A stretch of DNA of 64,000 nt. Origin: Balanoglossus misakiensis. Lineage: Eukaryota > Animalia > Hemichordata. Both the position numbers and the translations under genes were made by a program. The notes beneath the pieces were generated by a model. The model saw only the letters and a program-made list of their open reading frames with translations, did not search any database and was not told the DNA's origin. Shown here in pieces: positions 4,966 to 54,794 of this stretch. Every line of letters starts with the position of its first letter. The stretch's first letter is position 1. The DNA is taken from NCBI GenBank assembly GCA_040954595.2, contig CM082595.2:7918317-7982316 (forward strand), written 5' to 3'.

Positions 4966-4987
4966 AACTATAAACTGTAGGGAGAAT

Positions 4988-24090: not shown

Positions 24091-24840
24091 GTGCCCCGTT
24101 TGGAGTTCCTCTGTTTTCAAGTGAAGAAAAAGTTTAGCATATCTCATCAGAAGAAAATGAAGTTCGTGAAATTACGGAAAGACATCTTACGTAGCCTCTT
24201 TGTTTCTGTCAAAACCCTTCAGCGAATTGATGAGGAAATGTGTTTCGTTGTTGGTGGCCGTTGTATAATGTATATTCAGCAGATGGCAGCTCCTTTGTCT
24301 AAGGTTGAGAAAGAGGGAGGTCTTATATTTCGTCACCCAGAGTTACGTGATGAAATCTTACGCTGGGAGAGGTTGGAAACAGGGAATATATACAGTCAAT
24401 GGAAAGAAGAGAAATATGTCAACATTCACAAGTGATGCTTCTCAGTATGCTTGGGGCGGTATCTGTATGTCTGGAGAAAGGAGAGGGGAGATTAGAGATT
24501 ACTGGGGTACGAATATGCAAGAAAACTGTTAGCGTATAAGGAGAGTAAGGCGCTTAAGAAAACATTACTGTCATTTGAATGTGTGGTCCGCAATACCCGG
24601 GTTATTGCTTATACTGATAACAAAACGCTAATACATTGCTGGCGGAATTTGAGAAGTAGAAGCAAGGATATGAATAACGCCTTGAAGACTATATATGAGG
24701 TAGTGATTTGGATATCACTTTTAGAAATGCGGTATATTCCGTCCAGTGCCAATCCAGCTGATTCCCCTTCCAATACTTACCTCTCAGGATGCACGGTTTA
24801 TCTCGAGCTATTGGCAGATGATTGACAGGGAATTTGGTTA
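24091..24840 (+). pseudogene. DIRS/Ngaro-type tyrosine-recombinase retrotransposon RT-RNase H relic
   Basis: FTSDASQYAWGG...KESKAL...VIAYTDNKTLI...YIPSSANPADSPS spread over frameshifted ORFs 24091, 24305 and 24583. This is the DIRS1-type RNase H motif order. Confidence 0.8.
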
Positions 24841-25532
24841 TATCTTAATATTTAAACAGGTAGGTTATAGAAAGAGTATTTTAAGGTGTTTTATTGTTTC
24901 AGCATCCTGAAAGATTTGTCGAACTGATCACTCCAGTTGTAGCATCTATTCAAATTATCTATGATGAAATTCAAGAGCTCTATGCAATTTACGGTCTATT
25001 AAAATTGTGGTGATTTCAATTCTTTGTATTAATCTTGACTCGCACTTAATTTCATATAAGTTTACACGCAAATAATATTCATTGTTTGATACTTACATGG
25101 ACAAACAACAGCAACTATCAATTGAATGACTGTATCACCCCAATATGTAATACTAACCCAATATGTAATAACACTTAACCCAATATGTAATAAACTTTAA
25201 TTCTACATGTAATAAACGTTATCAGCTAGCTGCATATGTAATAAACGTTAACCCTATATGTTATAAACTTGAATTTTACATGAAATAAACGTTTTCAGTT
25301 AACCCTATATGTAATACACGTTAACCCTATATGTAATAAACTTTAATTCTACATGAAATAACGTTAATTCTACATGAAAAAACGTTATTAGTTAACCCTA
25401 TATGTAATAAACGTTAACCCTATATGTAATAAACTTTAACCCAATATGTAACACTAACCCAATATGTAATAACACTAACCCAATATGTAATAACACCTTA
25501 ACCCAATATGTAATACTAACCCAATATGTAAT

Positions 25533-27568
25533 TAAAGCTGCAAGCAGCGTTGAAGGGGCTCAAGCATACAGTGAATAACTATTAGACTCCATTCAGGGTT
25601 GTACCATTCAAATGCGTAGGTTGTATGTATTTGCTCTCGATGTTGAGATATGGGGAAGTAGGCAACCACCCGAAATGCATGTCCTACAAGCAAAAACACT
25701 ACAACCAAAGGTGAACTTCTACGTTGTAAGTACTTCAGTAAGTACTTCAAAGGTCAGCTGAGGGTACCCGAAATTGGGCCAAAATTAGGATTCTTATTTG
25801 GTTCATATTCAAGACTACGGAAAATCCTCGCCCTTTGGGTTTGTCAAATTAGGTATGGCCATAATAATGAGTTACGCAAGTAAGTTACAGGTGGCCCCAG
25901 GAATTTAGCATTTCATGACGCAGAGGGACCTACCCTACCCCTCCAAACACGTGGTTATATATGATGTGCATGCTAACATATGGAAACCAGGTCAATGGAC
26001 ACCTGACGTCATTCAAAAATTTGACAAAAAAATTTCATTCCTGTTTATGTTCTGCAACAAATCCTACATTTGCAGCCCTTTCACTTTGCCTACCATTAGG
26101 TATGCACGTAATACATGAATCAAGCAGGTGTCACAGGTATCCCCCTGTATTTGGCATTTCATGATAGTTTCGTCCCTCCAAATACCAAAGCTGCACCTGT
26201 ACAACGTGCTGAGATATGGCACTGTACGACAGAGGTCATCCAAATCACCTTGTACGTTTGGGCAAAAACCAACTGACACTTACATTCGTCCCTGTGGAAC
26301 AAAAACCACACATATCGCCCTGTTGGTTACTGTAAAATTAAATGTGCAAAATCAATAATGACTTAGGCAGGTGCAACAGGTGACCCCGCCTTTGGTATAT
26401 CATTATAGTCCCATCCGTATATCCCCCACGCCAAAGCTGCATGCATCTGCTGTTATTCACAAAGCAAAAGTAGGTGAAATGTCACATAAGGTCGCCCACA
26501 ACTTGACAGGAAAATCGGACTTCATATTGATCCATGTGCAACAAATACCACGCTAGCATCCCTTTCATTGACCCCACAATTACGCATGCACATAATTGAG
26601 TTACGCAGGTGTCACAGGTGACCCCCCGAATCGGGCGTATTTGTTGGTCCCATACAGCTGCATGAAGGTGCGTGCCATTATGGGGGACCTGATAACCCCC
26701 ACGGCCACCTGCGGGCCGACCCCCATACTGAACGTCCAGTTGCAACGTCACGACTGAAGTAGGAACTTTTGAACGGCAACAAAGCCTGATCTCTGATTAT
26801 TGCTGGTACCATACTCCCTTCGTGCAAGAAAATCACTGGTCTGCTTAAGTATATCGGCCAATTTCCCGAACTACTATCCAGTACATGTGACTCCCACAAC
26901 ATTAGCGACTGAGGGTCAAAGTCCGCTGCCGCATTACATTGAATGTTAACCAGTGTAGCCGGGTCTGCGTAGACACATTTGAACGGCAACAGCTAACAAA
27001 CTCAGCGTAATTCAATAAAACCCCTTAACACAGCCTGAACTCCGATAATGTGTTGTCCCAAAATTCATTCCATGGAAAATAATCACTGGTCTGTTAACGT
27101 ATTTCAGTCGATTTTCCAAGGACTACTGCAACCCGCCAGAAGTGAGTACATGTACCCTGCTAATGAGATCTCCACAACATTACGTAATGACGGTCAAAGT
27201 CCGATGCCCTAGTGTTCGTCCTCAGCCCACCAAAAATGCGAAAAATATTACAAAAACCTTCTTCTCAAAATCGACGTGGCCTAGGACCTTGAAATTTGTC
27301 ACAGGGGATTTTGGTCATATGGTATACAAAGTTTGAGAAAAGAATTCAAATGCCGCCATTAACGTGCAAATTAGGTCAATTTAAAAATTTTGCTCGATTA
27401 TAGCCACTAAGTCACGTGACTAATTACAAATTCAAAGGGCAGGTGCACAAGTACTCATGGGCCCCAACCACCGTGCCAAGTGTCACAGGGGTACGTCCAG
27501 GGATGTTTGAGAAAAACGGGAGCAAAAAAACGACTCAAGAAGAAAGAAGAAAAACTCCAGCAATAACA
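25533..27568 (-). mobile_element. Helentron-type non-autonomous element, same subfamily as 4988-6990, inserted in the left TIR arm
   Basis: Colinear with 4988-6990, with matching ORF-track peptides. It continues directly into AAACTCCAGCAATAAC (cf. 9747-9762) and is absent from the right copy. Confidence 0.9.
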
Positions 27569-27617
27569 CTTTAACCCAATATGTAATAACACTGCCCTAA
27601 TGTGATTGAATATGTAT

Positions 27618-27847
27618 TATATTATACCAGTATATTGATGGTGTAAATCACGCCATTTGATTGGTCGAGACACGACACGTGCCCGTGATATATTAGCCAT
27701 ATACCACAGTCATCATAGTCAAAGATATGCCTTTTTAAAATGTTTTATGCAAAGTTTCAAAATACTGGCATAATATGCGTGCGTATATGTCGTTAACTGG
27801 TCAAAATCTCGTGGTATACCATGGCTGGGGGTGTTTTATTGCTTAAA
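27618..27847. mobile_element. ~230-bp insertion present only in the left TIR element copy
   Basis: The right copy (48301-48340, reverse complement) reads GAATATGTAATATTAACCCAATA uninterrupted. Confidence 0.7.
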
Positions 27848-29023
27848 TATTAACCCAATAGAGTTAAAGTAAAACTCAAGTCTTTATAAAAGTAGTGAAA
27901 TCAAGTTGTGTACGCATGCGTGACATCAACATATTGTCTCAGATGGAAGCTTCCAGACATATACAGAGAATACCCAGGACACATAATTGACATGGAAAAT
28001 TTCCAAATTTTAGACAGAGAATCTGAGTTATTAATGAAGCCATATACACCAGGACACTTCAATCCTCACTTGTAGAGATGGGGGCAGGGGGGGGTTACAC
28101 TTTACCATCCGTGCACACTTCTTGCCCGTCAAAAGTGAAACAGATACTGATATTGAACGCCTTACGCGTCAAGTATACCTTTCTTAATTTTGAAGTCCAA
28201 AAGCGGGGGGGGGGGGGTCATCTTTTTTTTAAAAAACGTTTAGGGGGTTCACGTACTTTTGCCACAAAACTTGTGCTTTTGAGTCCACAAAATTGCAGTT
28301 TCGCACCCTTTATTTTACAAAATTTTCTAATCCCCAGCGTACCCCCGGGGCCTCCCCACCTCAGGTGATATGGGACAAATGTGGCGAATTAGCCCGGTGG
28401 TTGCAGTCCCCTAGTGGGTGGATTCGTATACTAACAGCCGATAGTAATAGTTTTGCGAAATATAGCATAAAGCTAGAGGTTCAAACAACAAAATTTACCT
28501 TGATTTCATGTGGATGTAAAGGTTAGGTTAATCTATCACTATGTTAACTTTACCAGGACTATCAAATGCTACCGGAACTTGCAAGTAATTCGTTGGGTTA
28601 AGCGGGAAGTATGTTAAACAAAAGGGTTTTCCCCTCTATCACCACCTCTATTGAAAATAGATGAAATAATATTATGGTCTTTTCCCAGAAAGACAAATGT
28701 ACCCCCCCCCCCGTAAAAACAAATACAAGCCACCTTTACCATATTGGGTTAAGTGTTATTACATATTGGGTTAATGAAAAACATTGAGTTTAGTTTTAAA
28801 ACATGTTTCGTAAGGATTTTAATATTCATATTCTGATATAATTTCATATTGATTTGGTGTATTTCATTTAGCTTAGCATTAAAATACATTAGGGCAGTTT
28901 TATTACATATTGGGTTAAGGTGTTATTACATATTGGGTTAGTATTACATATTGGGTTAAGGTGTTATTACACATTGGGTTAGTATTAAATATTGGGTTAA
29001 TTATTCCATATTGGGGTGATACA

Positions 29024-32000
29024 GTTAGCAACGTTGATCAAGTCAGATTTCCTACAGCATGGCTTGGCTAAAGCCCTGGCACTCTAGACCAGAAACACGC
29101 GTACAGAGACCACGTTGATCAAGTCTGATCTCCTATGGCTTGGCTCGACTAAAACCCCGGCACACTATGACAGACACTAGCGTTCGTTAGCAACGCTGAT
29201 CAAATCAGATTTCCTACGGCATGGCTTGGCTAAAACCCTGGCACTCTAGAGCAGAAACACGCGTACAGAGACCACGTTGATCTACTCACATTTCCTTCGG
29301 CCTGGCACGGTTGATGCCCCAGCACTATACATGTATATAGGACACAGACTGGCGTAAGTTAACAACGGTAATCACGTCGGGTTTCCTACGGCCTGGCTCA
29401 GCTGAAGCCCCGGCACTCTAGAGCAGAAACAGGCGTACATTGACCACGTTGATCAAGTCAGATTTCCTACGGCGTGACTCGGCTGGTGCACCGGCTCTAT
29501 ATGACACAGACTGGCGTAAGTGTTCAACGGTGATTACGTCGGATTTCCTACGGCCTGGTTTAGCTGAAGCCCCGGCACTTTAGAGCGGAAACACGCGTAC
29601 ATTGACCACGATGATCAAGTCAGATCTCCTACGGCCTGGCTCGACTAAAACCCCGGCACACCATGACAGACACTAGCGTTCGTTAGCAACGGTGATCAAG
29701 TCGGATTTCCTTCGGCCTGGCTCTGCAAAAGACCCGACACTCTAGTACAAAGACGTTGGCTAAGTCGGGCAAACCGAAGAGGGAAAGTCACAGCGGGTTG
29801 TTCGGGTAGGACTGCATTATTGCCTGTCAATTTATAGAGAAAGCCCGAATTTAACCAGGGCGTTTCAAACACCGACGTTAGTTGGGGGCACGGCCTGCAG
29901 TACTGCCGGGTAAGCTGACATCGGCGTACCGCATATAATGTAGGGGGGGGGGGGGGAACAGAACGGTTCAATACTACATTTATTAGATATCAGCTAATTT
30001 TGGACAATCATCTAAAATCTAAATCATTTTTTCATATTTGGATATCTGATGATGTATGAAATGTCCATAATATGTAAAAATGGTGCTGATTCTAAAAATG
30101 CACTCTGAATGAGCTGATTTAATACAAAATTGCGTTTTATTCGTTTTTGCACCAAAAAGGTCATTTTTAGGCAAAACATTCTTTATTTTTTTAATTCGGT
30201 GACCTGATCATATATAAACAATTGCTTGTATGTTAAAAGTTTTTATGACTTTTAAAAGCAGTGACACTGGCGGCATTCAACACGAAAATAACAATTTTAG
30301 CCACAATTTGGTCAAAATGGTAAATTTTTGAAAATTACAAAAAATACCTGTTTTCTACATTTTCAGAAATCTGATGGAGTATAGAATGCTCTTCGTATGT
30401 ATATATCGATACAAATTCCACAAAAGACAGTCTAATTTGGCTCACTGCAGACAAAATTGCGTTTTACCAAATTTTCCTTGAAAATGTCATTTTTAGAAAA
30501 AATAAATAAAAAAACCTTTGTTCTTCGAATTTGGTGCCCTGATCATATATGACATGTTGATTGTATGTTAAAAGTTTCGACCACACCAAAAATGCAGAGA
30601 TATTGACGGAATTCAAGGAAAATTAGTCATTTTGGCCATATTTTGACAAAAATGGTAAATTTTTAAAAAATCATAAAAAATTAACTCTTTTCTTCATTTT
30701 CGGAAATATTATGGAGCATGAAGTGTCGTTCTCTTGTAAAAAGTGCTGCAAATTCCAGAAAAGGCGGTATAATTTGAATCACCCAAGACAAAATTACCAT
30801 TTTCGACTTTTTTTCGAAAAATTGTCTTTTTTACAAAATAAATAAGAATAAATTCTTTTCTTAGTTTAAAACGGGTAGAGATACTTTCCACACGGGTTTT
30901 CTAACATTGAATTCCCGTTCATCAACTCAGATTTCCTACAGCATAAGTCGGCTAAAACCCTGACACTCTAGAGCAGAAACAGTTGCACAATGGGTAACGT
31001 TGAACAAGTTGATTTTTCTACGGCCTGGCTCGGCTAAATCTCCGTCACAATATGACAGACACTAGCGTACGTTAGCAACGGTGATCAAGTCAGATTTTCG
31101 ACGGCATGGCTTGGATAAAGCCCCGGCACTCTAGAGCAGAAACACGCGTACAGAGACCACGTTGATCAAGTCTGATCTCCTTCGGCTTGGCTCGACTAAA
31201 ACCCCGGCACACTATGACAGACACAAGCGTTCGTTAGCAACGTTGATCAAGTCAGATTTCCTACGGCATGGCTTGGCTAAAGCCCTGGCACTCTAGACCA
31301 GAAACACGCGTACAGAGACCACGTTGATCTACTCACATTTCCTTCGGCCTGGCACGGCTGATGCCCCGGCACTATATATAGGACACAGACTGGCGTAAGT
31401 TAACAACGGTAATCACGTCGGATTTCCTACGGCCTGGCTCAGCTGAAGCCCCGGCACTGTAGAGCAGAAACAGGCGTACATTGACCACGTTGATCAAGTC
31501 AGATTTCCTACGGCGTGACTCGGCTGGTGCACCGGCTCTATATGACACAGACTGGCGTAAGTTATCAACGGTGATTACGTCGGATTTCCTACGGCCTGGT
31601 TTAGCTGAAGCCCCGGCACTTTAGAGCGGAAACACGCGTACATTGACCACGATGATCAAGTCAGATCTCCTACGGCCTGGCTCGACTAAAACCCCGGCAC
31701 ACCATGACAGACACTAGCGTTCGTTAGCAACGGTGATCAAGTCGGATTTCCTTCGGCCTGGCTCTGCAAAAGACCCGACACTCTAGTACAAAGACGTTGG
31801 CTAAGTCGGGCAAACCGAAGAGGGAAAGTCACAGCGGGTCAACACTCGACATTTGTTCGGGTACGACTGCATTATTGCCTGTCAATTTATAGAGAAAGCC
31901 CGAATTTAACCAGGGCGTTTCAAACACCGACGTTAGTTGGGGGCACGGCCTGCAGTACTGCCGGGTAAGCTGACATCGGCGTACCGCATATAATGTAGGG

Positions 32001-35000
32001 GGGGGGGGGGGGAACAGAACGGTTCAATACTACATTTATTATATATCAGCTAATTTTGGACAATCATCTAAAATCTAAATCATTTTTTCATATTTGGATA
32101 TCTGATGATGTATGAAATGTCCATAATATGTAAAAATGGTGCTGATTCTAAAAATGCACTCTGAATGAGCTGATTTAATACAAAATTGCGTTTTATTCAC
32201 TTTTGCACTAAAAGGGCCATTTTTAGGCAAAACATTCTTTATTTTTTTTAATTCGGTGACCTGATCATATATAAACAATTGCTTGTATGTTAAAAGTTTT
32301 TATGACTCTTAAAAGCAGTGACACTGGCGGCATTCAAGACGAAAATAACCATTTTAGCCACATTTTGGTCAAAAATGGTAAATTTTTGAAAATTACGAAA
32401 AATAACTGTTTTCTACATTTTCTGTAATCTAATGGAGTATAGAATGCCCTTCGTATGTATATATCGATACAATTTCCACAAAAGACAGTCTAATTTGGCT
32501 CACTGCAGACAAAATTGCATGTTATCAAATTTTGCTTGAAAATGTCATTTTTAGAAAAACAATTAAAAAAAGCATTATTTGTTCTTCGAATTCGGTGCCC
32601 TGATTATATATGACATGTTGATTGTATGTTAAAAGTTTCGACCACTCCAAAAATGCAGAGATATTGACGGAATTCAAGAAAAAATAGTCATTTTGGCCAT
32701 ATTTTGACAAAAATGGTAAATTTTTAAAAAATCATAAAAATTAACCCTTTTCTTCATTTTCGGAAATATTATGGAGCATGAAGTGTCGTTCTCTTGTAAA
32801 AAGTGCTGCAAATTCCAGAAAAGGCGGTATAATTTGAATCACCCAAGACAAAATTACCATTTTCGACTTTTTTTCGAAAAATTGTCTTTTTACAAAATAA
32901 ATAAGAATAAATTCTTTTCTTAGTTTCAAACGGGTAGAGATACTTTCCACACGGGTTTTCTAACATTGAATTCCCGTTCATCAACTCAGATTTCCAACAG
33001 CATAAGTCGGCTAAAACCCTGACACTCTAGAGCAGAAACAGTTGCACAATGGGTAACGTTGAACAAGTTGATTTTTCTACGGCCTGGCTCGGCTAAATCT
33101 CCGTCACAATATGACAGACACTAGCATACGTTAGCAACGCTGATCAAGTCAGATTTTGTACGGCATGGCTTGGATAAAGCCCAGGCACTCTAGAGCAGAA
33201 ACACGCGTACAGAGACCACGTTGATCAAGTCTAATCTCCTACGGCTTGGCTCGACTAAAACCCCGGCACACTATGACAGACACTAGCGTTCGTTAACAAC
33301 GTTGATCAAGTCAGATTTCCTACGGCATGGCTTGGCTAAAGCCCTGGCACTCTAGACCAGAAACACGCGTACAGAGACCACGTTGATCTACTCACATTTC
33401 CTTCGGCCTGGCACGGCTGATGCCCCGGCACTATATATAGGACACAGACTGGCGTAAGTTAACAACGGTAATCACGTCGGGTTTCCTACGGCCTGGCTCA
33501 GCTGAAGCCCCGGCACTCTAGAGCAGAAACAGGCGTACATTGACCACGTTGATCAAGTCAGATTTCCTACGGCGTGACTCGGCTGGTGCACCGGCTCTAT
33601 ATGACACAGACTGGCGTAAGTTATCAACGGTGATTACGTCGGATTTCCTACGGCCTGGTTTAGCTGAAGCCCCGGAACTTTAGAGCGGAAACACGCGTAC
33701 ATTGACCACGATGATCAAGTCAGATCTCCTACGGCCTGGCTCGACTAAAACCCCGGCACACCATGACAGACACTAGCGTTCGTTAGCAACGGTAATCAAG
33801 TCGGATTTCCTTCGGCCTGGCTCTGCAAAAGACCCGACACTCTAGTACAAAGACGTTGGCTAAGTCGGGCAAACTGAAGAGGGAAAGTCACAGCGGGTCA
33901 ACACTCGACATTTGTTCGGGTAGGACTGCATTATTGCCTGTCAATTTATAGAGAAAGCCCGAATTTAACCAGGGCGTTTCAAACACCGACGTTAGTTGGG
34001 GGCACGGCCTGCAGTACTGCCGGGTAAGCTGACATCGGCGTACCGCATATAATGTAGGGGGGGGGGGGGGAACAGAACGGTTCAATACTACATTTATTAG
34101 ATATCAGCTAATTTTGGACAATCATCTAAAATCTAAATCATTTTTTCATATTTGGATATCTGATGATGTATGAAATGTCCATAATATGTAAAAATGGTGC
34201 TGATTCTAAAAATGCACTCTGAATGAGCTGATTTAATACAAAATTGCGTTTTATTAGTTTTTGCACCAAAAAGGTCATTTTTAGGCAAAACATTCTTTAT
34301 TTTTTTAATTCGGTGACCTGATCATATATAAACAATTGCTTGTATGTTAAAAGTTTTTATGACTTTTAAAAGCAGTGACACTGGCGGCATTCAACACGAA
34401 AATAACAATTTTAGCCACAATTTGGTCAAAATGGTAAATTTTTGAAAATTACAAAAAATACCTGTTTTCTACATTTTCAGAAATCTGATGGAGTATAGAA
34501 TGCTCTTCGTATGTATATATCGATACAAATTCCACAAAAGACAGTCTAATTTGGCTCACTGCAGACAAAATTGCATGTTATCAAATTTTGCTTGAAAATG
34601 TCATTTTTAGAAAAACAATTAAAAAAAGCATTATTTGTTCTTCGAATTCGGTGCCCTGATTATATATGACATGTTGATTGTATGTTAAAAGTTTCGACCA
34701 CTCCAAAAATGCAGAGATATTGACGGAATTCAAGAAAAAATAGTCATTTTGGCCATATTTTGACAAAAATGGTAAATTTTTAAAAAATCATAAAAATTAA
34801 CCCTTTTCTTCATTTTCGGAAATATTATGGAGCATGAAGTGTCGTTCTCTTGTAAAAAGTGCTGCAAATTCCAGAAAAGGCGGTATAATTTGAATCACCC
34901 AAGACAAAATTACCATTTTCGACTTTTTTTCGAAAAATTGTCTTTTTACAAAATAAATAAGAATAAATTCTTTTCTTAGTTTCAAACGGGTAGAGATACT

Positions 35001-38000
35001 TTCCACACGGGTTTTCTAACATTGAATTCCCGTTCATCAACTCAGATTTCCAACAGCATAAGTCGGCTAAAACCCTGACACTCTAGAGCAGAAACAGTTG
35101 CACAATGGGTAACGTTGAACAAGTTGATTTTTCTACGGCCTGGCTCGGCTAAATCTCCGTCACAATATGACAGACACTAGCATACGTTAGCAACGCTGAT
35201 CAAGTCAGATTTTGTACGGCATGGCTTGGATAAAGCCCAGGCACTCTAGAGCAGAAACACGCGTACAGAGACCACGTTGATCAAGTCTAATCTCCTACGG
35301 CTTGGCTCGACTAAAACCCCGGCACACTATGACAGACACTAGCGTTCGTTAACAACGTTGATCAAGTCAGATTTCCTACGGCATGGCTTGGCTAAAGCCC
35401 TGGCACTCTAGACCAGAAACACGCGTACAGAGACCACGTTGATCTACTCACATTTCCTTCGGCCTGGCACGGCTGATGCCCCGGCACTATATATAGGACA
35501 CAGACTGGCGTAAGTTAACAACGGTAATCACGTCGGATTTCCTACGGCCTGGCTCAGCTGAAGCCCCGGCACTGTAGAGCAGAAACAGGCGTACATTGAC
35601 CACGTTGATCAAGTCAGATTTCCTACGGCGTGACTCGGCTGGTGCACCGGCTCTATATGACACAGACTGGCGTAAGTTATCAACGGTGATTACGTCGGAT
35701 TTCCTACGGCCTGGTTTAGCTGAAGCCCCGGCACTTTAGAGCGGAAACACGCGTACATTGACCACGATGATCAAGTCAGATCTCCTACGGCCTGGCTCGA
35801 CTAAAACCCCGGCACACCATGACAGACACTAGCGTTCGTTAGCAACGGTGATCAAGTCGGATTTCCTTCGGCCTGGCTCTGCAAAAGACCCGACACTCTA
35901 GTACAAAGACGTTGGCTAAGTCGGGCAAACCGAAGAGGGAAAGTCACAGCGGGTCAACACTCGACATTTGTTCGGGTACGACTGCATTATTGCCTGTCAA
36001 TTTATAGAGAAAGCCCGAATTTAACCAGGGCGTTTCAAACACCGACGTTAGTTGGGGGCACGGCCTGCAGTACTGCCGGGTAAGCTGACATCGGCGTACC
36101 GCATATAATGTAGGGGGGGGGGAACAGAACGGTTCAATACTACATTTATTATATATCAGCTAATTTTGGACAATCATCTAAAATCTAAATCATTTTTTCA
36201 TATTTGGATATCTGATGATGTATGAAATGTCCATAATATGTAAAAATGGTGCTGATTCTAAAAATGCACTCTGAATGAGCTGATTTAATACAAAATTGCG
36301 TTTTATTCACTTTTGCACTAAAAGGGTCATTTTTAGGCAAAACATTCTTTATTTTTTTTAATTCGGTGACCTGATCATATATAAACAATTGCTTGTATGT
36401 TAAAAGTTTTTATGACTCTTAAAAGCAGTGACACTGGCGGCATTCAAGACGAAAATAACCATTTTAGCCACATTTTGGTCAAAAATGGTAAATTTTTGAA
36501 AATTACGAAAAATAACTGTTTTCTACATTTTCTGTAATCTAATGGAGTATAGAATGCCCTTCGTATGTATATATCGATACAATTTCCACAAAAGACAGTC
36601 TAATTTGGCTCACTGCAGACAAAATTGCATGTTATCAAATTTTGCTTGAAAATGTCATTTTTAGAAAAACAATTAAAAAAAGCATTATTTGTTCTTCGAA
36701 TTCGGTGCCCTGATTATATATGACATGTTGATTGTATGTTAAAAGTTTCGACCACTCCAAAAATGCAGAGATATTGACGGAATTCAAGAAAAAATAGTCA
36801 TTTTGGCCATATTTTGACAAAAATGGTAAATTTTTAAAAAATCATAAAAATTAACCCTTTTCTTCATTTTCGGAAATATTATGGAGCATGAAGTGTCGTT
36901 CTCTTGTAAAAAGTGCTGCAAATTCCAGAAAAGGCGGTATAATTTGAATCACCCAAGACAAAATTACCATTTTCGACTTTTTTTCGAAAAATTGTCTTTT
37001 TACAAAATAAATAAGAATAAATTCTTTTCTTAGTTTCAAACGGGTAGAGATACTTTCCACACGGGTTTTCTAACATTGAGTTCCCGTTCATCAACTCAGA
37101 TTTCCAACAGCATAAGTCGGCTAAAACCCTGACACTCTAGAGCAGAAACAGTTGCACAATGGGTAACGTTGAACAAGTTGATTTTTCTACGGCCTGGCTC
37201 GGCTAAATCTCCGTCACAATATGACAGACACTAGCATACGTTAGCAACGCTGATCAAGTCAGATTTTGTACGGCATGGCTTGGATAAAGCCCAGGCACTC
37301 TAGAGCAGAAACACGCGTACAGAGACCACGTTGATCAAGTCTAATCTCCTACGGCTTGGCTCGACTAAAACCCCGGCACACTATGACAGACACTAGCGTT
37401 CGTTAACAACGTTGATCAAGTCAGATTTCCTACGGCATGGCTTGGCTAAAGCCCTGGCACTCTAGACCAGAAACACGCGTACAGAGACCACGTTGATCTA
37501 CTCACATTTCCTTCGGCCTGGCACGGCTGATGCCCCGGCACTATATATAGGACACAGACTGGCGTAAGTTAACAACGGTAATCACGTCGGATTTCCTACG
37601 GCCTGGCTCAGCTGAAGCCCCGGCACTGTAGAGCAGAAACAGGCGTACATTGACCACGTTGATCAAGTCAGATTTCCTACGGCGTGACTCGGCTGGTGCA
37701 CCGGCTCTATATGACACAGACTGGCGTAAGTTATCAACGGCGATTACGTCGGATTTCCTACGGCCTGGTTTAGCTGAAGCCCCGGCACTTTAGAGCGGAA
37801 ACACGCGTACATTGACCACGATGATCAAGTCAGATCTCCTACGGCCTGGCTCGACTAAAACCCCGGCACACCATGACAGACACTAGCGTTCGTTAGCAAC
37901 GGTGATCAAGTCGGATTTCCTTCGGCCTGGCTCTGCAAAAGACCCGACACTCTAGTACAAAGACGTTGGCTAAGTCGGGCAAACCGAAGAGGGAAAGTCA

Positions 38001-41000
38001 CAGCGGGTCAACACTCGACATTTGTTCGGGTACGACTGCATTATTGCCTGTCAATTTATAGAGAAAGCCCAAATTTAACCAGGGCGTTTCAAACACCGAC
38101 GTTAGTTGGGGGCACGGCCTGCAGTACTGCCGGGTAAGCTGACATCGGCGTACCGCATATAATGTAGGGGGGGGGGGAACAGAACGGTTCAATACTACAT
38201 TTATTATATATCAGCTAATTTTGGACAATCATCTAAAATCTAAATCATTTTTTCATATTTGGATATCTGATGATGTATGAAATGTCCATAATATGTAAAA
38301 ATGGTGCTGATTCTAAAAATGCACTCTGAATGAGCTGATTTAATACAAAATTGCGTTTTATTCACTTTTGCACTAAAAGGGTCATTTTTAGGCAAAACAT
38401 TCTTTATTTTTTTTAATTCGGTGACCTGATCATATATAAACAATTGCTTGTATGTTAAAAGTTTTTATGACTCTTAAAAGCAGTGACACTGGCGGCATTC
38501 AAGACGAAAATAACCATTTTAGCCACATTTTGGTCAAAAATGGTAAATTTTTGAAAATTACGAAAAATAACTGTTTTCTACATTTTCTGTAATCTAATGG
38601 AGTATAGAATGCCCTTCGTATGTATATATCGATACAATTTCCACAAAAGACAGTCTAATTTGGCTCACTGCAGACAAAATTGCATGTTATCAAATTTTGC
38701 TTGAAAATGTCATTTTTAGAAAAACAATTAAAAAAAGCATTATTTGTTCTTCGAATTCGGTGCCCTGATTATATATGACATGTTGATTGTATGTTAAAAG
38801 TTTCGACCACTCCAAAAATGCAGAGATATTGACGGAATTCAAGAAAAAATAGTCATTTTGGCCATATTTTGACAAAAATGGTAAATTTTTAAAAAATCAT
38901 AAAAATTAACCCTTTTCTTCATTTTCGGAAATATTATGGAGCATGAAGTGTCGTTCTCTTGTAAAAAGTGCTGCAAATTCCAGAAAAGGCGGTATAATTT
39001 GAATCACCCAAGACAAAATTACCATTTTCGACTTTTTTTCGAAAAATTGTCTTTTTACAAAATAAATAAGAATAAATTCTTTTCTTAGTTTCAAACGGGT
39101 AGAGATACTTTCCACACGGGTTTTCTAACATTGAATTCCCGTTCATCAACTCAGATTTCCAACAGCATAAGTCGGCTAAAACCCTGACACTCTAGAGCAG
39201 AAACAGTTGCACAATGGGTAACGTTGAACAAGTTGATTTTTCTACGGCCTGGCTCGGCTAAATCTCCGTCACAATATGACAGACACTAGCATACGTTAGC
39301 AACGCTGATCAAGTCAGATTTTGTACGGCATGGCTTGGATAAAGCCCAGGCACTCTAGAGCAGAAACACGCGTACAGAGACCACGTTGATCAAGTCTAAT
39401 CTCCTACGGCTTGGCTCGACTAAAACCCCGGCACACTATGACAGACACTAGCGTTCGTTTGCAACGGTGATCAAGTCGGATTTCCTGCGGCCTGGCTCTG
39501 CAAAAGACCCGACACTCTAGTACAAAGACGTTGGCTAAGTCGGGCAAACCGAAGAGGGAAAGTCACAGCGGGTTGTTCGGGTGGGACTGCATTATTGCCT
39601 GTCAATTTATAGAGAAAGCCCGAATTTAACCAGGGCGTTTCAAACACTGATGTTAGTTGGGGGCACTGCCTGCAGTACTGCCGGGTAAGCTGACATCGGC
39701 GTACCGCATATAATGTAGGGGGGGGGGGACAGAACGGTTCAATACTACATTTATTAGATATCAGCTAATTTTGGACAATTATCTAAAATCTAAATCACTT
39801 TTTCATATTTGGATATCTGATGATGTATGAAATGTCCATAATATGTAAAAATGGTGCTGATTCTAAAAAATGCACTCTGAATGAGCTGATTTAATACAAA
39901 ATTGCGTTTTATTCATTTTTGCACTAAAAAGGTCATTTTTATGCAAAACATTCTTTAATTTTTGAAATCGGTGACCTGATCATATATAAACAATTGTTTG
40001 TATGTTAAAAGTTTTTATGACTCTTAAAAGCAGTGACACTGGCGGCATTCAAGACGAAAATAACCATTTTAGCCACATTTTGGTCAAAAATGGTAAATTT
40101 TTGAAAATTACGAAAAATAACTGTTTTCTACATTTTCGGTACTCTGATGGAGTATAGAATGCCCTTCGTATGTATATATCGATACAAATTCCACAAAAGA
40201 CAGTCTAATTTGGCTCACTGCATACAAAATTGCATGTTATCAAATTTTGCTTGAAAATGTCATTTTTAGAAAAACAATTAAAAAAAGCTTTAATTGTTCT
40301 TGGAATTCGGTGCCCTGATTATATATGACATGTTGATTGTATGTTAAAAGTTTCGACCACTCCAAAAATGCAGAGATATTGACGGAATTCAAGGAAAATT
40401 AGTCATTTTAGCCATATTTTGACAAAAATGGTAAATTTTTAAAAAATCATAAAAAATTAACTCTTTTCTTCATTTTCGGAAATATTATGGAGCATAAAGT
40501 GTCGTTCTCTTGTAAAAAGTGCTGCAAATTCCAGAAAAGGCGGTATAATTTGAATCACCCAAGACAAAATTACCATTTTCGACTTTTTTTCGAAAAATTG
40601 TCTTTTTTACAAAATAAATAAGAATAAATTCTTTTCTTAGTTTCAAACGGGTAGAGATACTTTCCACACGGGTTTTCTAACATTGAATTCCCGTTCATCA
40701 ACTCAGATTTCCTACAGCATAAGTCGGCTAAAACCCTGACACTCTAGAGCAGAAACAGTTGCACACTGGTTACGTTGAACAAGTCGATTTTTCTACGGCC
40801 TGGCTCGGCTAAATCTCCGTCACAATGACAGACACTAGCGTACGTTAGCAACGGTGATCAAGTCAGATTTTCTACAGCATGGCTTGGATAAAGCCCCGGC
40901 ACTCTAGAGCAGAAACACGCGTACAGAGACCACGTTGATCAAGTCTGATCTCCTACGGCTTGGCTCGACTAAAACCCCGGCACACTATGACAGACACAAG

Positions 41001-44000
41001 CGTTCGTTAGCAACGTTGATCAAGTCAGATTTCCTACGGCATGGCTTGGCTAAAGCCCTGGCACTCTAGACCAGAAACACGCGTACAGAGACCACGTTGA
41101 TCTACTCACATTTCCTTCGGCCTGGCACGGCTGATGCCCCAGCACTATATATAGGACACAGACTGGCGTAAGTTAACAACGGTAATCACGTCGGGTTTCC
41201 TACGGCCTGGCTCAGCTGAAGCCCCGGCACTCTAGAGCAGAAACAGGCGTACATTGACCACGTTGATCAAGTCAGATTTCCTACGGCGTGACTCGGCTGG
41301 TGCACCAGCTCTATATGACACAAACTGGCGTAAGTTATCAACGGTGATTACGTCGGATTTCCTACGGCCTGGTTTAGCTGAAGCCCCGGAACTTTAGAGC
41401 GGAAACACGCGTACATTGACCACGATGATCAAGTCAGATCTCCTACGGCCTGGCTCGACTAAAACCCCGGCACACCATGACAGACACTAGCGTTCGTTAG
41501 CAACGGTGATCAAGTCGGATTTCCTGCGGCCTGGCTCTGCAAAAGACCCGACACTCTAGTACAAAGACGTTGGCTAAGTCGGGCAAACCGAAGAGGGAAA
41601 GTCACAGCGGGTTGTTCGGTTGGGACTGCATTATTGCCTGTCAATTTATAGAGAAAGCCCGAATTTAACCAGGGCGTTTCAAACACTGATGTTAGTTGGG
41701 GGCACTGCCTGCAGTACTGCCGGGTAAGCTGACATCGGCGTACCGCATATAATGTAGGGGGGGGGGGGGACAGAACGGTTCAATACTACATTTATTAGAT
41801 ATCAGCTAATTTTGGACAATTATCTAAAATCTAAATCACTTTTTCATATTTGGATATCTGATGATGTATGAAATGTCCATAATATGTAAAAATGGTGCTG
41901 ATTCTAAAAAATGCACTCTGAATGAGCTGATTTAATACAAAATTGCGTTTTATTCATTTTTGCACTAAAAAGGTCATTTTTATGCAAAACATTCTTTAAT
42001 TTTTGAAATCGGTGACCTGATCATATATAAACAATTGTTTGTATGTTAAAAGTTTTTATGACTCTTAAAAGCAGTGACACTGGCGGCATTCAAGACGAAA
42101 ATAACCATTTTAGCCACATTTTGGTCAAAAATGGTAAATTTTTGAAAATTACGAAAAATAACTGTTTTCTACATTTTCGGTACTCTGATGGAGTATAGAA
42201 TGCCCTTCGTATGTATATATCGATACAAATTCCACAAAAGACAGTCTAATTTGGCTCACTGCATACAAAATTGCATGTTATCAAATTTTGCTTGAAAATG
42301 TCATTTTTAGAAAAACAATTAAAAAAAGCTTTAATTGTTCTTGGAATTCGGTGCCCTGATCATATATGACATGTTGATTGTATGTTAAAAGTTTCGACCA
42401 CACCAAAAATGCAGAGATATTGACGGAATTCAAGGAAAATTAGTCATTTTGGCCATATTTTGACAAAAATGGTAAATTTTTAAAAAATCATAAAAAATTA
42501 ACTCTTTTCTTTATTTTCGGAAATATTATGGAGCATGAAGTGTCGTTCTCTTGTAAAAAGTGCTGCAAATTCCAGAAAAGGCGGTATAATTTGAATCACC
42601 CAAGACAAAATTACCATTTTCGACTTTTTTTCGAAAAATTGTCTTTTTTACAAAATAAATAAGAATAAATTCTTTTCTTAGTTTCAAACGGGTAGAGATA
42701 CTTTCCACACGGGTTTTCTAACATTGAATTCTCGTTCATCAACTCAGATTTCCTACAGCATAAGTCGGCTAAAACCCTGACACTCTAGAGCAGAAACAGT
42801 TGCACACTGGTAACGTTGAACAAGTCGATTTTTTCTACGGCCTGGCTCGGCTAAATCTCCGTCACAATATGACAGACACTAGCGTACGTTAGCAACGGTG
42901 ATCAAGTCAGATTTTCTACGGCATGGCTTGGATAAAGCCCCGGCACTCTAGAGCAGAAACACGCGTACAGAGACCACGTTGATCAAGTCTGATCTCCTTC
43001 GGCTTGGCTCGACTAAAACCCCGGCACACTATGACAGACACAAGCGTTCGTTAGCAACGTTGATCAAGTCAGATTTCCTACGGCATGGCTTGGCTAAAGC
43101 CCTGGCACTCTAGACCAGAAACACGCGTACAGAGACCACGTTGATCTACTCACATTTCCTTCGGCCTGGCACGGCTGATGCCCCGGCACTATATATAGGA
43201 CACAGACTGGCGTAAGTTAACAACGGTAATCACGTCGGATTTCCTACGGCCTGGCTCAGCTGAAGCCCCGGCACTGTAGAGCAGAAACAGGCGTACATTG
43301 ACCACGTTGATCAAGTCAGATTTCCTACGGCGTGACTCGGCTGGTGCACCGGCTCTATATGACACAGACTGGCGTAAATTATCAACGGTGATTACGTCGG
43401 ATTTCCTACGGCCTGGTTTAGCTGAAGCCCCGGCACTTTAGAGCGGAAACACGCGTACATTGACCACGATGATCAAGTCAGATCTCCTACGGCCTGGCTC
43501 GACTAAAACCCCGGCACACCATGACAGACACTAGCGTTCGTTAGCAACGGTGATCAAGTCAGATTTCCTTCGGCCTGGCTCTGCAAAAGACCCGACACTC
43601 TAGTACAAAGACGTTGGCTAAGTCGGGCAAACCGAAGAGGGAAAGTCACAGCGGGTCAACACTCGACATTTGTTCGGGTACGACTGCATTATTGCCTGTC
43701 AATTTATAGAGAAAGCCCGAATTTAACCAGGGCGTTTCAAACACCGACGTTAGTTGGGGGCACGGCCTGCAGTACTGCCGGGTAAGCTGACATCGGCGTA
43801 CCGCATATAATGTAGGGGGGGGGGAACAGAACGGTTCAATACTACATTTATTATATATCAGCTAATTTTGGACAATCATCTAAAATCTAAATCATTTTTT
43901 CATATTTGGATATCTGATGATGTATGAAATGTCCATAATATGTAAAAATGGTGCTGATTCTAAAAATGCACTCTGAATGAGCTGATTTAATACAAAATTG

Positions 44001-47000
44001 CGTTTTATTCACTTTTGCACTAAAAGGGTCATTTTTAGGCAAAACATTCTTTATTTTTTTTAATTCGGTGACCTGATCATATATAAACAATTGCTTGTAT
44101 GTTAAAAGTTTTTATGACTCTTAAAAGCAGTGACACTGGCGGCATTCAAGACGAAAATAACCATTTTAGCCACATTTTGGTCAAAAATGGTAAATTTTTG
44201 AAAATTACGAAAAATAACTGTTTTTTACATTTTCTGTAATCTAATGGAGTATAGAATGCCCTTCATATGTATATATCGATACAATTTCCACAAAAGACAG
44301 TCTAATTTGGCTCACTGCAGACAAAATTGCATGTTATCAAATTTTGCTTGAAAATGTCATTTTTAGAAAAACAATTAAAAAAAGCATTATTTGTTCTTCG
44401 AATTCGGTGCCCTGATTATATATGACATGTTCATTGTATGTTAAAAGTTTCGACCACTCCAAAAATGCAGAGATATTGACGGAATTCAAGAAAAAATAGT
44501 CATTTTGGCCATATTTTGACAGAAATGGAAATTTTTTAAAAAATCATAAAAAATTAACTCTTTTCTTCATTTTCGGAAATATTATGGAGCATGAAGTGTC
44601 GTTCTTTTGTGAAAAGTGCTGCAAATTCCAGAAAAGGCGGTATAATTTGAATCACCCAAGACAAAATTACCATTTTCGACTTTTTTTCGAAAAATTGTCT
44701 TTTTTACAAAATAAATAAGAATAAATTCTTTTCTTAGTTTCAAACGGGTAGAGATACTTTCCACACGGGTTTTCTAACATTGAATTCCCGTTCATCAACT
44801 CAGATTTCCTACAGCATAAGTCGGCTAAAACCCTGACACTCTAGAGCAGAAACAGTTGCACACTGGTAACGTTGAACAAGTCGATTTTTCTACGGCCTGG
44901 CTCGGCTAAATCTCCGTCACAATATGACAGACACTAGCGTACGTTAGCAACGGTGATCAAGTCAGATTTTCTACGGCATGGCTTGGATAAAGCCCCGGCA
45001 CTCTAGAGCAGAAATACGCGTACAGAGACCACGTTGATCAAGTCTGATCTCCTACGGCTTGGCTCGACTAAAACCCCGGCACACTATGACAGACACTAGC
45101 GTTCGTTAGCAACGTTGATCAAGTCAGATTTCCTACGGCATGGCTTGGCTAAAGCCCTGGCACTCTAGACCAGAAACACGCGTACAGAGACCACGTTGAT
45201 CTACTCACATTTCCTTCGGCCTGGCACGGCTGATGCCCCGGCACTATATATAGGACACAGACTGGCGTAAGTTAACAACGGTAATCACGTCGGGTTTCCT
45301 ACGGCCTGGCTCAGCTGAAGCCCCGGCACTCTAGAGCAGAAACAGGCGTACATTGACCACGTTGATCAAGTCAGATTTCCTACGGCGTGACTCGGCTGGT
45401 GCACCGGCTCTATATGACACAGACTGGCGTAAGTTATCAACGGTGATTACGTCGGATTTCCTACGGCCTGGTTTAGCTGAAGCCCCGGCACTTTAGAGCG
45501 GTAACGCGTACATTGACCACGATGATCAAGTCAGATCTCCTACGGCCTGGCTCGACTAAAACCCCGGCACACCATGACATACACTAGCGTTCGTTAGCAA
45601 CGGTGATCAAGTCGGATTTCCTTCGGCCTGGCTCTGCAAAAGACCCGACACTCTAGTACAAAGACGTTGGCTAAGTCGGGCAAACCGAAGAGGGAAAGTC
45701 ACAGCGGGTCAACACTCGACATTTGTTCGGGTAGGACTGCATTATTGCCTGTCAATTTATAGAGAAAGCCCGAATTTAACCAGGGCGTTTCAAACACCGA
45801 CGTTAGTTGGGGGCACGGCCTGCAGTACTGCCGGGTAAGCTGACATCGGCGTACCGCATATAATGTAGGGGGGGGGGGGACAGAACGGTTCAATACTACA
45901 TTTATTATATATCAGCTAATTTTGGACAATCATCTAAAATCTAAATCATTTTTTCATATTTGGATATCTGATGATGTATGAAATGTCCATAATATGTAAA
46001 AATGGTGCTGATTCTAAAAATGCACTCTGAATGAGCTGATTTAATACAAAATTGCGTTTTATTCATTTTTTGCACTAAAAAGGTCATTTTTAGGCAAAAC
46101 ATTCTTTATTTTTTTAATTCGGTGACCTGATCATATATAAACAATTGCTTGTATGTTAAAAGTTTTTATGACTCTTAAAAGCAGTGACACTGGCGGCATT
46201 CAAGACGAAAATAACCATTTTAGCCACATTTTGGTCAAAAATGGTAAATTTTTGAAAATTACGAAAAATAACTGTTTTCTACATTTTCTGTAATCTAATG
46301 GAGTATAGAATGCCCTTCGTATGTATATATCGATACAATTTCCACAAAAGACAGTCTAATTTGGCTCACTGCAGACAAAATTGCATGTTATCAAATTTTG
46401 CTTGAAAATGTCATTTTTAGAAAAACAATTAAAAAAAGCTTTAATTGTTCTTCGAATTCGGTGCCCTGATTATATATGACATGTTGATTGTATGTTAAAA
46501 GTTTCGACCACACCAAAAATGTAGAGATATTGACGGAATTCAAGGAAAATTAGTCATTTTGGCCATATTTTGACAAAAATGGTAAATTTTTAAAAAATCA
46601 TAAAAAAATAACTCTTTTCTTCATTTTCGGAAATATTATGGAGCATGAAGTGTCGTTCTCTTGTAAAAAGTGCTGCAAATTCCAGAAAAGGCGGTATAAT
46701 TTGACTCACCCAAGACAAAATTACCATTTTCGACTTTTTTTCGAAAAATTGTCTTTTTTACAAAATAAATAAGAATAAATTCTTTTCTTAGTTTCAAACG
46801 GGTAGAGATACTTTCCACACGGGTTTTCTAACATTGAATTCCCGTTCATCAACTCAGATTTCCTACAGCATAAGTCGGCTAAAACCCTGACACTCTAGAG
46901 CAGAAACAGTTGCACACTGGTAACGTTGAACAAGTTGATTTTTCTACGGCCTGGCTCGGCTAAATCTCCGTCACAATATGACAGACACTAGCGTACGTTA

Positions 47001-47164
47001 GCAACGGTGATCAAGTCAGATTTTCTACGGCATGGCTTGGATAAAGCCCCGGCACTCTAGAGCAGAAACACGCGTACAGAGACCACGTTGATCAAGTCTG
47101 ATCTCCTACGGCTTGGCTCGACTAAAACCCCGGTACACTATGACAGACACTAGCGTTCGTTAGC
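29024..47164 (+). repeat. Macrosatellite: 9 tandem units of ~2.05 kb, each ~11 x 81-bp GC-rich subrepeats + ~200-bp unique segment with poly-G + ~950-bp AT-rich segment
   Basis: Poly-G markers at ~29943, 31997, 34056, 36112, 38166, 39717, 41756, 43814 and 45867 (spacing ~2040-2060, one of ~1550). ACGTTGATCAAGTCAG-like motifs recur at 29031, 29112, 29193 and 29274 (81 bp). Confidence 0.97.
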
Positions 47165-49043
47165 TGTATCACCCCAATATGTAATTATTAACCCAATATG
47201 TAATACTAACCCAATATGTAATAACACCTTAACCCAATATGTAACACTAACCATATATGTAATAAACGTTAACCCAATATGTAATAACACCTTAACCCAA
47301 TATGTAATAACACTGCCCTAATGTATTTTCATGCTAAGCTAAATGAAACACCAAATCAATATGAAATTATATCTGTATATGAATTAGAATCCTTACTAAA
47401 CATGTTTTAAAACTAAACTCAATGTTTTTCATTAACCCAATATGTAATAACGGTGGCTTGTATTTTTTATACGAGGGGGGGGGGGTACATTTGTCTTTCT
47501 GGGAAAAGACCATAATATTATTTCATCTATTTTCAACAGAGGTGGTGATAGAGGGGGAAACCCTATTGTTTAACATACTTCCCGCTTAACCCAACGAACT
47601 ACTTGCAAGTTTGGGTAGCATTTGATAGTCCTGGTAAAGTTAACATAGTGATAGATTAACTAACCTTTACATCCACATGAAATGAAGGTAAATTTTGTTG
47701 TTTGAACCTCTAGCTTTATGCTATATTTCGCAAAACTATTACTATCGGGTGTTAGTATACGGATCCACCCACTAGGGGACTGCAACCACCGGGCTTGGTG
47801 GGGAGGCCCCGGGGGTACGCTGGGGATTAGAAAATTTTGTAAAATAAAGGGTGCGAAACTGCAATTTTGTGGACTCAAAAGCACAAATTTTGTGGCAAAA
47901 GTACGTGAACCCCCTAAACGTTTTTTAAAAAAAAGATGACCCCCCCCCCCCCCCCGCTTTTGGACATCAAAATTAAGAAAGGTATACTTGACGCGTAAGG
48001 CGTTCAATATCAGTATCTGTTTCACTTTTGACGGGCAAGTAGTGTGCACGGATGGTAAAGTGTAACCCCCCCCCTGCCCCCATCTCTACAAGTGGGGATT
48101 GAAGTGTCCTGATGTATATGGCTTCATTAATAACTCAGATTCTCTGTCTAAAATTTGGAAATTTTCCATGTCAATTATGTGTCCTGGGTATTCTCTGTAT
48201 ATGTCTGGAAGCTTCCATCTGAGACAATATGTTGATGTCACGCATGCGTACACAACTTGATTTCACTACTTTTATAAAGACTTGAGTTTTACTTCAACTC
48301 TATTGGGTTAATATTACATATTCAAACACATTAGGGCAGTGTTATTACATATTGTGTTAAAGTGTTATTACATATTTGGTTAGTATTACATATTGGGTTA
48401 AGGTGTTATTACATATTGGGTTAGTATTACATATTGGGTTAAGGTGTTATTACATATTGGGTTAGTATTACATATTGGGTTAAAGTGTTATTACATATTG
48501 GGTTAGTGTTACATATTGGTTTAAGTGGTATTACATATTGGGTTAGTGTTACATATTGGGTTAAAGTTTATTACATACAGGGTTAAAGTTTATTACATAT
48601 TGGGTTAACTAATAAAGTTTTTTTCATGTAGAATTAACGTTATTTAATGTAGAAATAAAGTTTATTAGATATAGGGTTAACTAATAACGTATTTGTTCAT
48701 GTAGAATTAACGTTATTTCATGTAGAACTAAAGTTTATTACATATAGGGTTAACGTTTATTACATATAGGATTAACTGAAAATGTTTATTTCATGTAAAA
48801 TTCAAGTCTATAACATATAGGGTTAACGCTTATTACATATGCAGCTAGCTGATAACGTTTATTACATGTAGAATTAAAGTTTATTACATATTGGGTTAAG
48901 TTTTATTACATATTGGGTTAGTATTACATATTGGGTTAAGCGTTATTACATATTGGGTTAGTATTACATATTGGGTTAAGGCGTTATTACATATTGGGTT
49001 AGTATTACATATTGGGTTAATTATTACATATTGGGGTGATACA
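47165..49043 (-). mobile_element. Foldback-like TIR DNA transposon, right copy (inverted relative to the left copy)
   Basis: TGTATCACCCCAATATG at 47165 and CATATTGGGGTGATACA ending at 49043. ORF 47660..48049(-) mirrors 28078..28526(+). Confidence 0.9.
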
Positions 49044-49179
49044 AATGACTGACACAGTACATAACATGCCCCAAAGTTCTGTTATATATTGTCGTATTGT
49101 GTTGGGTAAAATATTAGTTGCTTTGACTGGTGTTATAATTTCAGTTCAAACTTTATAGGGAGAAAAATTTACACTAAGT

Positions 49180-49520
49180 GGGAGACTTATTTTCTGTAGC
49201 CGTAGCCGTAGAAGCTGTATTTTGACTTCTATGAAAAACTCATGATTTTGCAAATACTTTGAATAAAATTGTTATCAGTATTATGTTCAGAATTTGTATT
49301 CAAATTTACGTCTGTTTCTTTCAGATTGACCTTTGGGCAAGAGCATTATTTATCTTGTATTGAAAATGATTCAAATAGAGAAGCCATGTGTCGTTTTAGA
49401 GTTTCTGCGCATGCACTACGCATCGAATGAGATAGAAAATTATGTAATGAGCGCACACAAAGAATTTGACATTGTAATTCTACAAGCATTGAAGAGATTT
49501 TCATTTTAACAATGTACCGT
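49180..49520 (+). pseudogene. Old decayed LINE ORF2 C-terminal fragment related to the adjacent LINE, in opposite orientation
   Basis: From ~49377 it reads REAMCRFRVSAHALRIE*DR, versus RNALCRLRVSAHSLRIESDR in ORF 49652..50689. Confidence 0.65.
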
Positions 49521-53192: not shown

Positions 53193-53228
53193 CCGTGGTT
53201 GTAGTACACGTGGGCTTCGGCCAACACC

Positions 53229-54248: not shown

Positions 54249-54794
54249 TTGTACTATTTCTTCTCTACTTCAAGTAAACGTATATGCAACTTTTCAGCCG
54301 CCAATTGCCAACAAACTGGAAATTTTTGGGAAAAGTTGGAGACACCAGACATACGCGACGTCTACGGTACTTCAGTAAACAGCGCCCTTCGTGCAATATT
54401 CAAAGATCTACAAAAACTGGCAAAAGCTTAAAGACCGCTAGATAGAGGGCACTTTTTCCCAAAATCTAGATGGTTGACCCCCCATTTTTATTCCATAGAT
54501 CAAATGTCATAGTATCATTAGTATTAATTTCAACATGATCAGACGACCTTTTATTTCGAGGTGGGTATCACCTTAAGTAAAACACCCCAAAATAACACAA
54601 TGATCCAATGGAAAGATCCTAATAAGATGCATAGAAAACAATGGATTTGGAGCAAATCATTGCCGTGAAAGGATTAAAGGAAGTGAGAATGGTAATTAGA
54701 GCTAAAGATCACCTGAATCTCCATAAATTCATCAAACAATTATCCTGCATACACTAAGACATGACAAAAACATTAAAATAGTTTTCAAAATGAA

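Follow-up and report, generated by a model that had tools for sequence, protein, structure and literature searches.

The route by which large arrays of satellite DNA come to occupy new loci is still unsettled. Reinsertion of circles and long-range conversion are put forward as the main candidates, and the junctions can seldom be read (PMC7403614). Cargo that lies between two foldback-type elements and moves as a unit in an animal has been described for the composite transposing element (TE) of Ising in Drosophila (PMC6431247). In maize, Ac macrotransposons and composite insertions of 10–28 kb use their outermost ends and can excise with a modified duplication (PMC9910405). Bacterial Tn10-type composites and IS26 translocatable units hold cargo between two similar elements, inverted or direct, and circle routes have been proposed for them, while KolobokP of marine invertebrates shows a composite-like layout in animals, with solo flanking units and a circle-into-solo model (PMC9587614). 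Rsp-like circles have given satellite arrays at gene-rich sites, the permuted ends of which were read as circle reinsertion (PMC7403614), and in Galileo inversions two opposite-facing foldback copies each lack matching flanks of their own (PMC2775673). Here, we analysed a stretch of 64,000 nt from Balanoglossus misakiensis (the window; positions are counted from its first letter), which contains a 24-kb block made of an 18-kb macrosatellite between two inverted copies of a terminal inverted repeat (TIR) element. This block looks like, and probably works like, a composite transposon.

A sequence scan placed one hexamer, AATGAC, at both outer ends of the block and another, GTTAGC, at both inner ends. 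The components were delimited as follows:

25125–25130, plus strand: left copy of the outer target-site duplication, AATGAC, which is a single copy in paralogous flanks.
25131–29023, plus strand: element A, a non-autonomous foldback-type TIR element of 3,893 bp, with its long-array end outward and its short-array end (about 28888–29023) inward.
29024–29029, plus strand: left copy of the inner duplication, GTTAGC, at a unit phase identical to that of the copy at 47159.
29024–47164, plus strand: macrosatellite cargo of 18,141 bp, in nine circularly permuted units.
47159–47164, plus strand: right copy of the inner duplication, GTTAGC, from sequence and phase comparison.
47165–49043, minus strand: element B, 1,879 bp, inverted relative to A, with its short-array end (about 47165–47322) inward and its long-array end (about 48328–49043) outward.
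49044–49049, plus strand: right copy of the outer duplication, AATGAC, contained in an exact 58-bp junction contig (49018–49075) from run X1 of the public sample considered below.

The 17-bp terminus TGTATCACCCCAATATG occurs twice on each strand (at 25131 and 47165, and at 29007 and 49027) and nowhere else in the window. When duplication lengths of 1–15 bp were tried, 6 bp was the sole fit for both pairs; the chance equality of two random hexamers outside the block has p=4.3e-4. The outer targets have no motif in common with the inner ones. Unrelated cargo is enclosed by two complete copies of a single TIR element, and the whole is bounded by one outer duplication of 6 bp, with a single AATGAC in paralogous flanks and a near-identical empty copy that is 4 bp short. 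A preliminary description of the locus had given the four junction positions and both duplications, which were exact in our re-scan; its statements that neither element has matching flanks of its own and that the satellite comprises nine units were also upheld, the latter by counting nine spacers and tallying the blocks. The observation of four junctions with paired duplications is real and confirmed.

Each element carries a long array of 18–23 bp sub-repeats at one end and a short array at the other, the core sub-repeats numbering 13 outward and five inward in A, and 18 outward and six inward in B. Since B lies in the opposite orientation to A, the outer ends are both of the long-array type and the inner ends both of the short-array type. 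The terminus and the first sub-repeats are shared by all four ends, which would allow like ends to pair. A is longer than B by 2 kb owing to two nested insertions:

25533–27561, plus strand: nested insertion 1, about 2.0 kb, in A only, within the outer TIR array (boundaries ± about 3 bp).
27617–27845, no strand assigned: nested insertion 2, about 230 bp, in A only, with approximate boundaries.

Nested insertion 1 is 89.6% identical to 4985–6990 over 2,062 bp, and nested insertion 2 has no relative elsewhere in the window. Between A and B, 26 of 983 interior sites differ, with nine gap events, or 32 of 1,124 sites when the inner TIR is included (2.6–2.8%); within the first 52 bp, the inner end of A has three substitutions and that of B has one. 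Neither element contains a transposase gene, the sole open reading frame (ORF) of at least 120 amino acids being one of 141 amino acids at 47660–48085 with no Pfam match. In a separate observation, the interior at 27960–28120, together with the matching part of B, holds a broken frame. This frame, probably a captured fragment, may resemble the end of a Penelope GIY-YIG domain.

Long modular TIRs of tandem sub-repeats, unequal in length around a non-coding interior, are those of the foldback-like structural class, in which such TIRs have been described (PMC3169594). Mutator/FB proper was rejected, since it needs a duplication of 8–10 bp (mostly 9 bp; 9 bp in Tm1, PMC3169594) and 6 bp was measured. 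Maverick/Polinton elements, which are defined by AG termini and by polymerase and integrase genes (PMC6839031), were also rejected, as the termini here are TG..CA and neither a polymerase nor an integrase ORF is present. The termini read TGT..ACA, and the combination of TG..CA ends with a 6-bp duplication is that of Ginger2/TDD or IS3EU/GingerRoot. A 6-bp duplication is reported for GingerRoot, with TG..CA in 5 of 77 copies (PMC6839031), and the duplication of Ginger2 is given as 6 bp (PMC6839031) or 4–5 bp (PMC10045372). Judged by ends and duplication length, A and B appear compatible with Ginger2 or IS3EU/GingerRoot and are not assigned to a superfamily. No autonomous partner copy with these ends is present within the window, and the TIR pattern had no matches in metagenome and viral contigs. 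At least seven contigs, in 5 of the 15 loose-end rows listed (loose ends being pooled per place), exit the terminus at 49043–49047 into other flanks; the element family is therefore dispersed and the element boundary correct.

The satellite units measure 2,039–2,059 bp, apart from one of 1,565 bp, and consist of a block of 880–883 bp, built of 81-bp monomers in 162-bp dimers, and a spacer of 1,158–1,176 bp. The nine units are counted from nine spacers, eight whole sub-repeat blocks and two halves that join to one block plus an extra dimer. Two features depart from the regular pattern:

29119–29280, plus strand: extra 162-bp dimer adjoining the left inner junction (95 bp inside it), a candidate out-of-register crossover.
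39130–39522, plus strand: sub-repeat block cut by 490 bp (393 versus 883 bp), from block comparison.

The 95 nt after the left GTTAGC show one difference from the stretches at 31233, 41006, 43050 and 45105, two from those at 33292, 35348 and 37402, and 5–35 at the other 19 of 26 dimer boundaries. For the 95 nt ending at the right GTTAGC, the best match is the stretch before the same unit phase (1–3 differences). The cargo is therefore nine units, circularly permuted and cut at one GTTAGC, and the shared phase of both inner copies points to one insertion, not two. The extra dimer may have arisen by a crossover during array exchange or circle closure. The spacers are all different, with 1–45 substitutions per pair, and some are mosaics. 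Within 31789–39130, spacers 2, 4 and 5 lie within 1–2 substitutions of each other, blocks 2–4 are nearly identical and spacer 3 combines types 1 and 2 in a mosaic, a pattern that by its letters is one of very recent exchange inside the array. The satellite has no match elsewhere in the window, and its pattern had none in metagenome contigs. Two other identities were rejected: an RNA-gene repeat, with no Rfam matches at E up to 1 across 23000–33200 and no tRNAs in the window, and a Helitron 3' end (a GC-rich hairpin before CTAG), for which all seven folded stretches were no better than shuffles (z −0.64 to +1.21).

The flank of the block was found in three runs (X1, X2 and X3) of one public sample, with shares of 0.59, 0.52 and 0.00. 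This evidence consists of assembled contigs, not reads, and the figures are those of the rows listed. An X2 contig of 403 bp (depth 84.3, minus strand) aligned by its positions 352–403 with 25079–25130, with two differences and no gaps; an X2 row of the same length, depth and strand aligned by positions 1–363 with 49042–49404, with one difference and no gaps. The two rows were taken as one record on these shared values. The contig joins the outer flanks without an element, with more than 31 letters per side. From X1, a flank contig of 359 bp (no differences, depth 83.4) starts at 49046, and the exact right outer junction contig has a depth of 31.3. The 24-kb block is a presence/absence difference, because one sample holds both an element-free flank contig and this junction contig. 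Summed TIR depth ran to thousands to tens of thousands, versus about 84 in the flank, and was not used as copy number.

In diverged flank paralogues, represented by loose ends in X1 and X3, the left flank continues through a single AATGAC into the right flank (28 of 30 letters match from 49054), which fixes the ancestral state. The empty copy has flanks almost identical to those of the window, as expected if it descends from a filled one, and its 403 bp compare with 407 bp for a clean site, the 4 missing bp lying at the duplication. From the start of the X1 flank contig and the junction contig, a branch is placed at 49045/49046, which fits a join at TGA (25123–25125 = 49046–49048); by these coordinates, rather than by letters read, the empty copy appears to be joined at TGA microhomology. 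The short empty copy is likely an excision scar. The empty site with a single AATGAC predicted in the preliminary description was thus borne out in that the outer flanks are adjacent and the paralogues carry one hexamer, but the near-identical copy is not clean. The target itself (24900–25130 and 49050–49500) belongs to a moderately repeated sequence, with paralogues that have 31 extra bp at 25108.

We favour the reading, at a probability of about 0.5, that the block is a composite transposon inserted at AATGAC via its two outer ends by a transposase made elsewhere in the genome, and later likely excised from one lineage. The steps would be the following: (i) a single element would have inserted into a donor satellite array at GTTAGC, as the same-phase 6-bp duplication suggests; (ii) unequal exchange would have copied the element together with nine units, giving the permuted cargo and a GTTAGC at both inner junctions; (iii) recombination between the terminal repeats of one copy may have flipped its interior, either before the move or after it and with unchanged flanks, and the flipped pair would persist because an inverted pair cannot loop out its cargo; (iv) the outer ends would have acted as a pair and duplicated AATGAC, the duplication and the empty site being observed and the move presumably made in a single step; and (v) the near-identical empty copy, measured as 4 bp short and apparently joined at TGA, would be the scar of excision. 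One insertion event is called for because GTTAGC occurs at 24 of 18,136 array positions, which gives an unbiased second hit on any GTTAGC a p of about 0.13%. Insertions within arrays followed by array expansion have been reported (PMC5932611), as has the excision of a 28-kb maize Ac macrotransposon that left a modified duplication (PMC9910405), and mPing excision sites are repaired via duplication-derived microhomology (PMC4561436). The edge spacers, S1 and S9, differ at 34 of about 1,160 positions (2.9%), near the A/B divergence, an agreement that hints at elements and edge units having split together. The outer-end route is favoured because these divergences agree and because recent excision of the whole block is the simplest account of an empty copy that has both a scar and near-identical flanks.

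Several points weigh against this reading. The four ends carry no end-specific terminal variants and no readable flip mark, so the flip has to be assumed. Within the window and the contigs searched by pattern, we saw neither a donor array nor a second copy of the composite, nor a transposase. Decay is lopsided, with both nested insertions in A and with edge-unit private substitutions of 20 in 1,720 bp at A versus 4 in 1,506 bp at B, which fits independent histories of A and B at least as well. The junction contig has 26 element-side letters, under the 31-letter bridging rule, and fits a solo element too; the left outer junction was not seen among the contig rows listed, and the inner junctions lie outside the contig comparison. 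All three runs come from one sample, possibly the source of the window itself. The 4 missing bp fall in a short run of near-repeated tetramers, where slippage could have removed them without excision, and what was excised could have been a solo precursor.

The interpretation in the preliminary description is partly supported. The likeliest reading is that the whole block arrived together, but the same four junctions also result from circle capture at a resident element, with the parts arriving separately. Of the two routes that had been offered, outer-end transposition of a composite and integration of an element-bearing satellite circle, neither yields the inverted orientation without one more step. 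The comparison with Tn10 holds for the geometry only, as neither element has a transposase, and foldback-bounded composites were already known in an animal (PMC6431247); an autonomous composite of Tn10/Tn5 type was rejected, since neither A nor B encodes a transposase. We regard as doubtful the broader proposition that a still-active foldback-type family pairs like ends over 24 kb and carries whole macrosatellite arrays into and out of gene-rich DNA, in which case the composite would be segregating in the population and the 4-bp-short allele would be its excision scar. If true, the same pair of elements should flank other arrays of the satellite in the genome, with GTTAGC on the inner side and new 6-bp duplications on the outer side.

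A resident element could have captured a satellite circle in either of two ways, which jointly make up a possible but still tentative alternative; with the outer-end route, they make three single-event routes that each account for all four junctions. A circle of nine units that carried one GTTAGC-flanked element may have entered a resident solo element with AATGAC on either side. In that case, a crossover or cut-end swap between the short-array end of the resident and the long-array end of the circle's element would produce, in a single step, the inverted pair together with both duplications, and the cargo would have reached the site separately from its first element. Circular permutation is the expected mark of circle reinsertion (PMC7403614), although unequal exchange yields the same permutation without a circle, and the circle could have closed at the extra dimer that lies 95 bp in from the left junction. 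A distance of 2.6% between A and B, nine gap events and two nested insertions are natural for independent copies, and the same route has been proposed for KolobokP (PMC9587614). However, direct-register pairing over 1.9 kb should outnumber unlike-end pairing over about 150 bp, and if the empty copy is a recent excision product, capture and excision would be needed on separate branches within a short time; we judge this route unlikely. The other way, which seems to us somewhat more unlikely again, starts with an inverted A/B pair at AATGAC, formed by a second insertion into the duplication of the first, whose two inner ends were afterwards cut as a pair and joined to GTTAGC in a satellite circle, so that the circle opened between them. 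The inner duplication would be the last event and no flip would be needed, so that one transposition accounts for the inverted orientation, both 6-bp pairs, the exact unit count and the independent histories of A and B. Double insertions at one site, including inverted tandems, are reported in Drosophila (PMC5932611), abutted ends drive cointegrates in IS30 (PMC9333248), and close head-to-head VANDAL21 elements rearrange and lose the spacer in Arabidopsis (PMC12312487). Such a capture requires that an 18-kb circle served as the target, or that a translocation was afterwards reversed; moreover, the inner ends are the more decayed, by the terminal substitutions given above, and no inverted dimer of the element family was seen.

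Returning to movement by the outer ends, the pair could also have formed by two independent insertions, in opposite orientation, at the same phase of two donor-array units (a hot spot), the shared inner hexamer being a by-product of the repeat. This is classic composite formation and gives the inverted orientation and the A/B divergence directly, yet only nine same-phase sites and 24 GTTAGC exist in the 18,136 positions, outer and inner targets have no motif in common and no target preference was shown; we consider it improbable. Assembly paths that jump through repeats are a known failure, and an assembler that left a solo element, crossed an element-bearing satellite array elsewhere and returned would also swap the duplications. 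The evidence here comes from contigs at the outer flanks, not from single reads; on the other hand, A and B are distinct (2.6–2.8%, with different insertions), inverted and only 1.9–3.9 kb long, all nine spacers differ, and the right outer junction is exact in X1, so an artefact is very improbable. A simple inversion with exchanged duplications, of the Galileo type, was rejected: it would give reverse-complement inner hexamers and separate empty sites, whereas both pairs here are direct repeats, GCTAAC is absent from the array and the outer flanks join. Replicative cointegrates and sister-chromatid events predict direct, identical copies, and were rejected because the copies are inverted and 2.6–2.8% apart.

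The window is animal DNA with host exons, as Pfam matches identified a CUB domain at 14345–14821 (plus strand) and a POLR3C winged helix at 60613–61152 (minus strand), about 10 kb to the left and 11.5 kb to the right of the block, respectively. To the right of the block lies a near-complete long interspersed nuclear element with frameshifts (49652–54269, minus strand), with an ORF1-like frame at 53229–54269 and Exo_endo_phos and RVT_1 frames. Units of 1.3–2 kb with internal repeats of 216–240 bp form head-to-tail clusters on both strands (3697–9660, 19054–23114 and 25533–27561); they share a 14-nt start motif and a GAA-rich tail, and one copy lies within the TIR of A. This family may resemble Helentron/HINE-type elements. 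A decayed frame at 24200–24840 is multi-copy in contigs and carries a putative RNase H-like motif of DIRS-type retroelements. A direct pair of 450 bp (9800–10566 and 23247–23693; 94.9%) is accompanied by a local tandem part-copy, and an inverted pair of 136 bp (14092–14227 and 62714–62849) is 86.8% identical.

Although the scope is one locus, every junction is marked by a transposase-type duplication and the site also exists in an element-free copy, so the candidate routes make distinct predictions. In each of the three leading readings, it was a cut-and-paste element that brought 18 kb of satellite into DNA with host exons, and a block that moves as one unit would be a way for satellite DNA to reach new places. 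Helentron/HINE and Tetris elements reportedly disperse satellites as well, leaving arrays at gene-rich sites. The arrays of those systems and of Rsp-like circles sit inside a single element or are inserted at microhomologies, whereas the large array described here is enclosed by two whole cut-and-paste elements that have transposase-type duplications. In listings of the open-access literature, where older fly papers are sparsely represented, we found no account of a macrosatellite carried by a pair of whole TIR elements in which both duplications can still be read.

The kind of structure is not new, since foldback-bounded composites are known in Drosophila and macrotransposons in maize, and each ingredient has precedent. 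Compared with the bacterial composites, the elements here have no transposase, the cargo is not selectable and the copies are 2.6–2.8% diverged; homology is neither shown nor expected. In KolobokP, direct repeats of about 450 or 660 bp enclose a coding interior, in contrast to the inverted elements, non-coding satellite and inner-junction duplication seen here. The ends used by maize Ac are one 5' and one 3', whereas both outer ends here are of the same type and the cargo is a circularly permuted satellite. Unlike the Drosophila TE, the cargo of which is hundreds of kb of genic DNA, the present block carries 18 kb of pure satellite, belongs to a different element family (TGT..ACA ends and 6-bp duplications) and has an inner duplication that records the formation of the pair.

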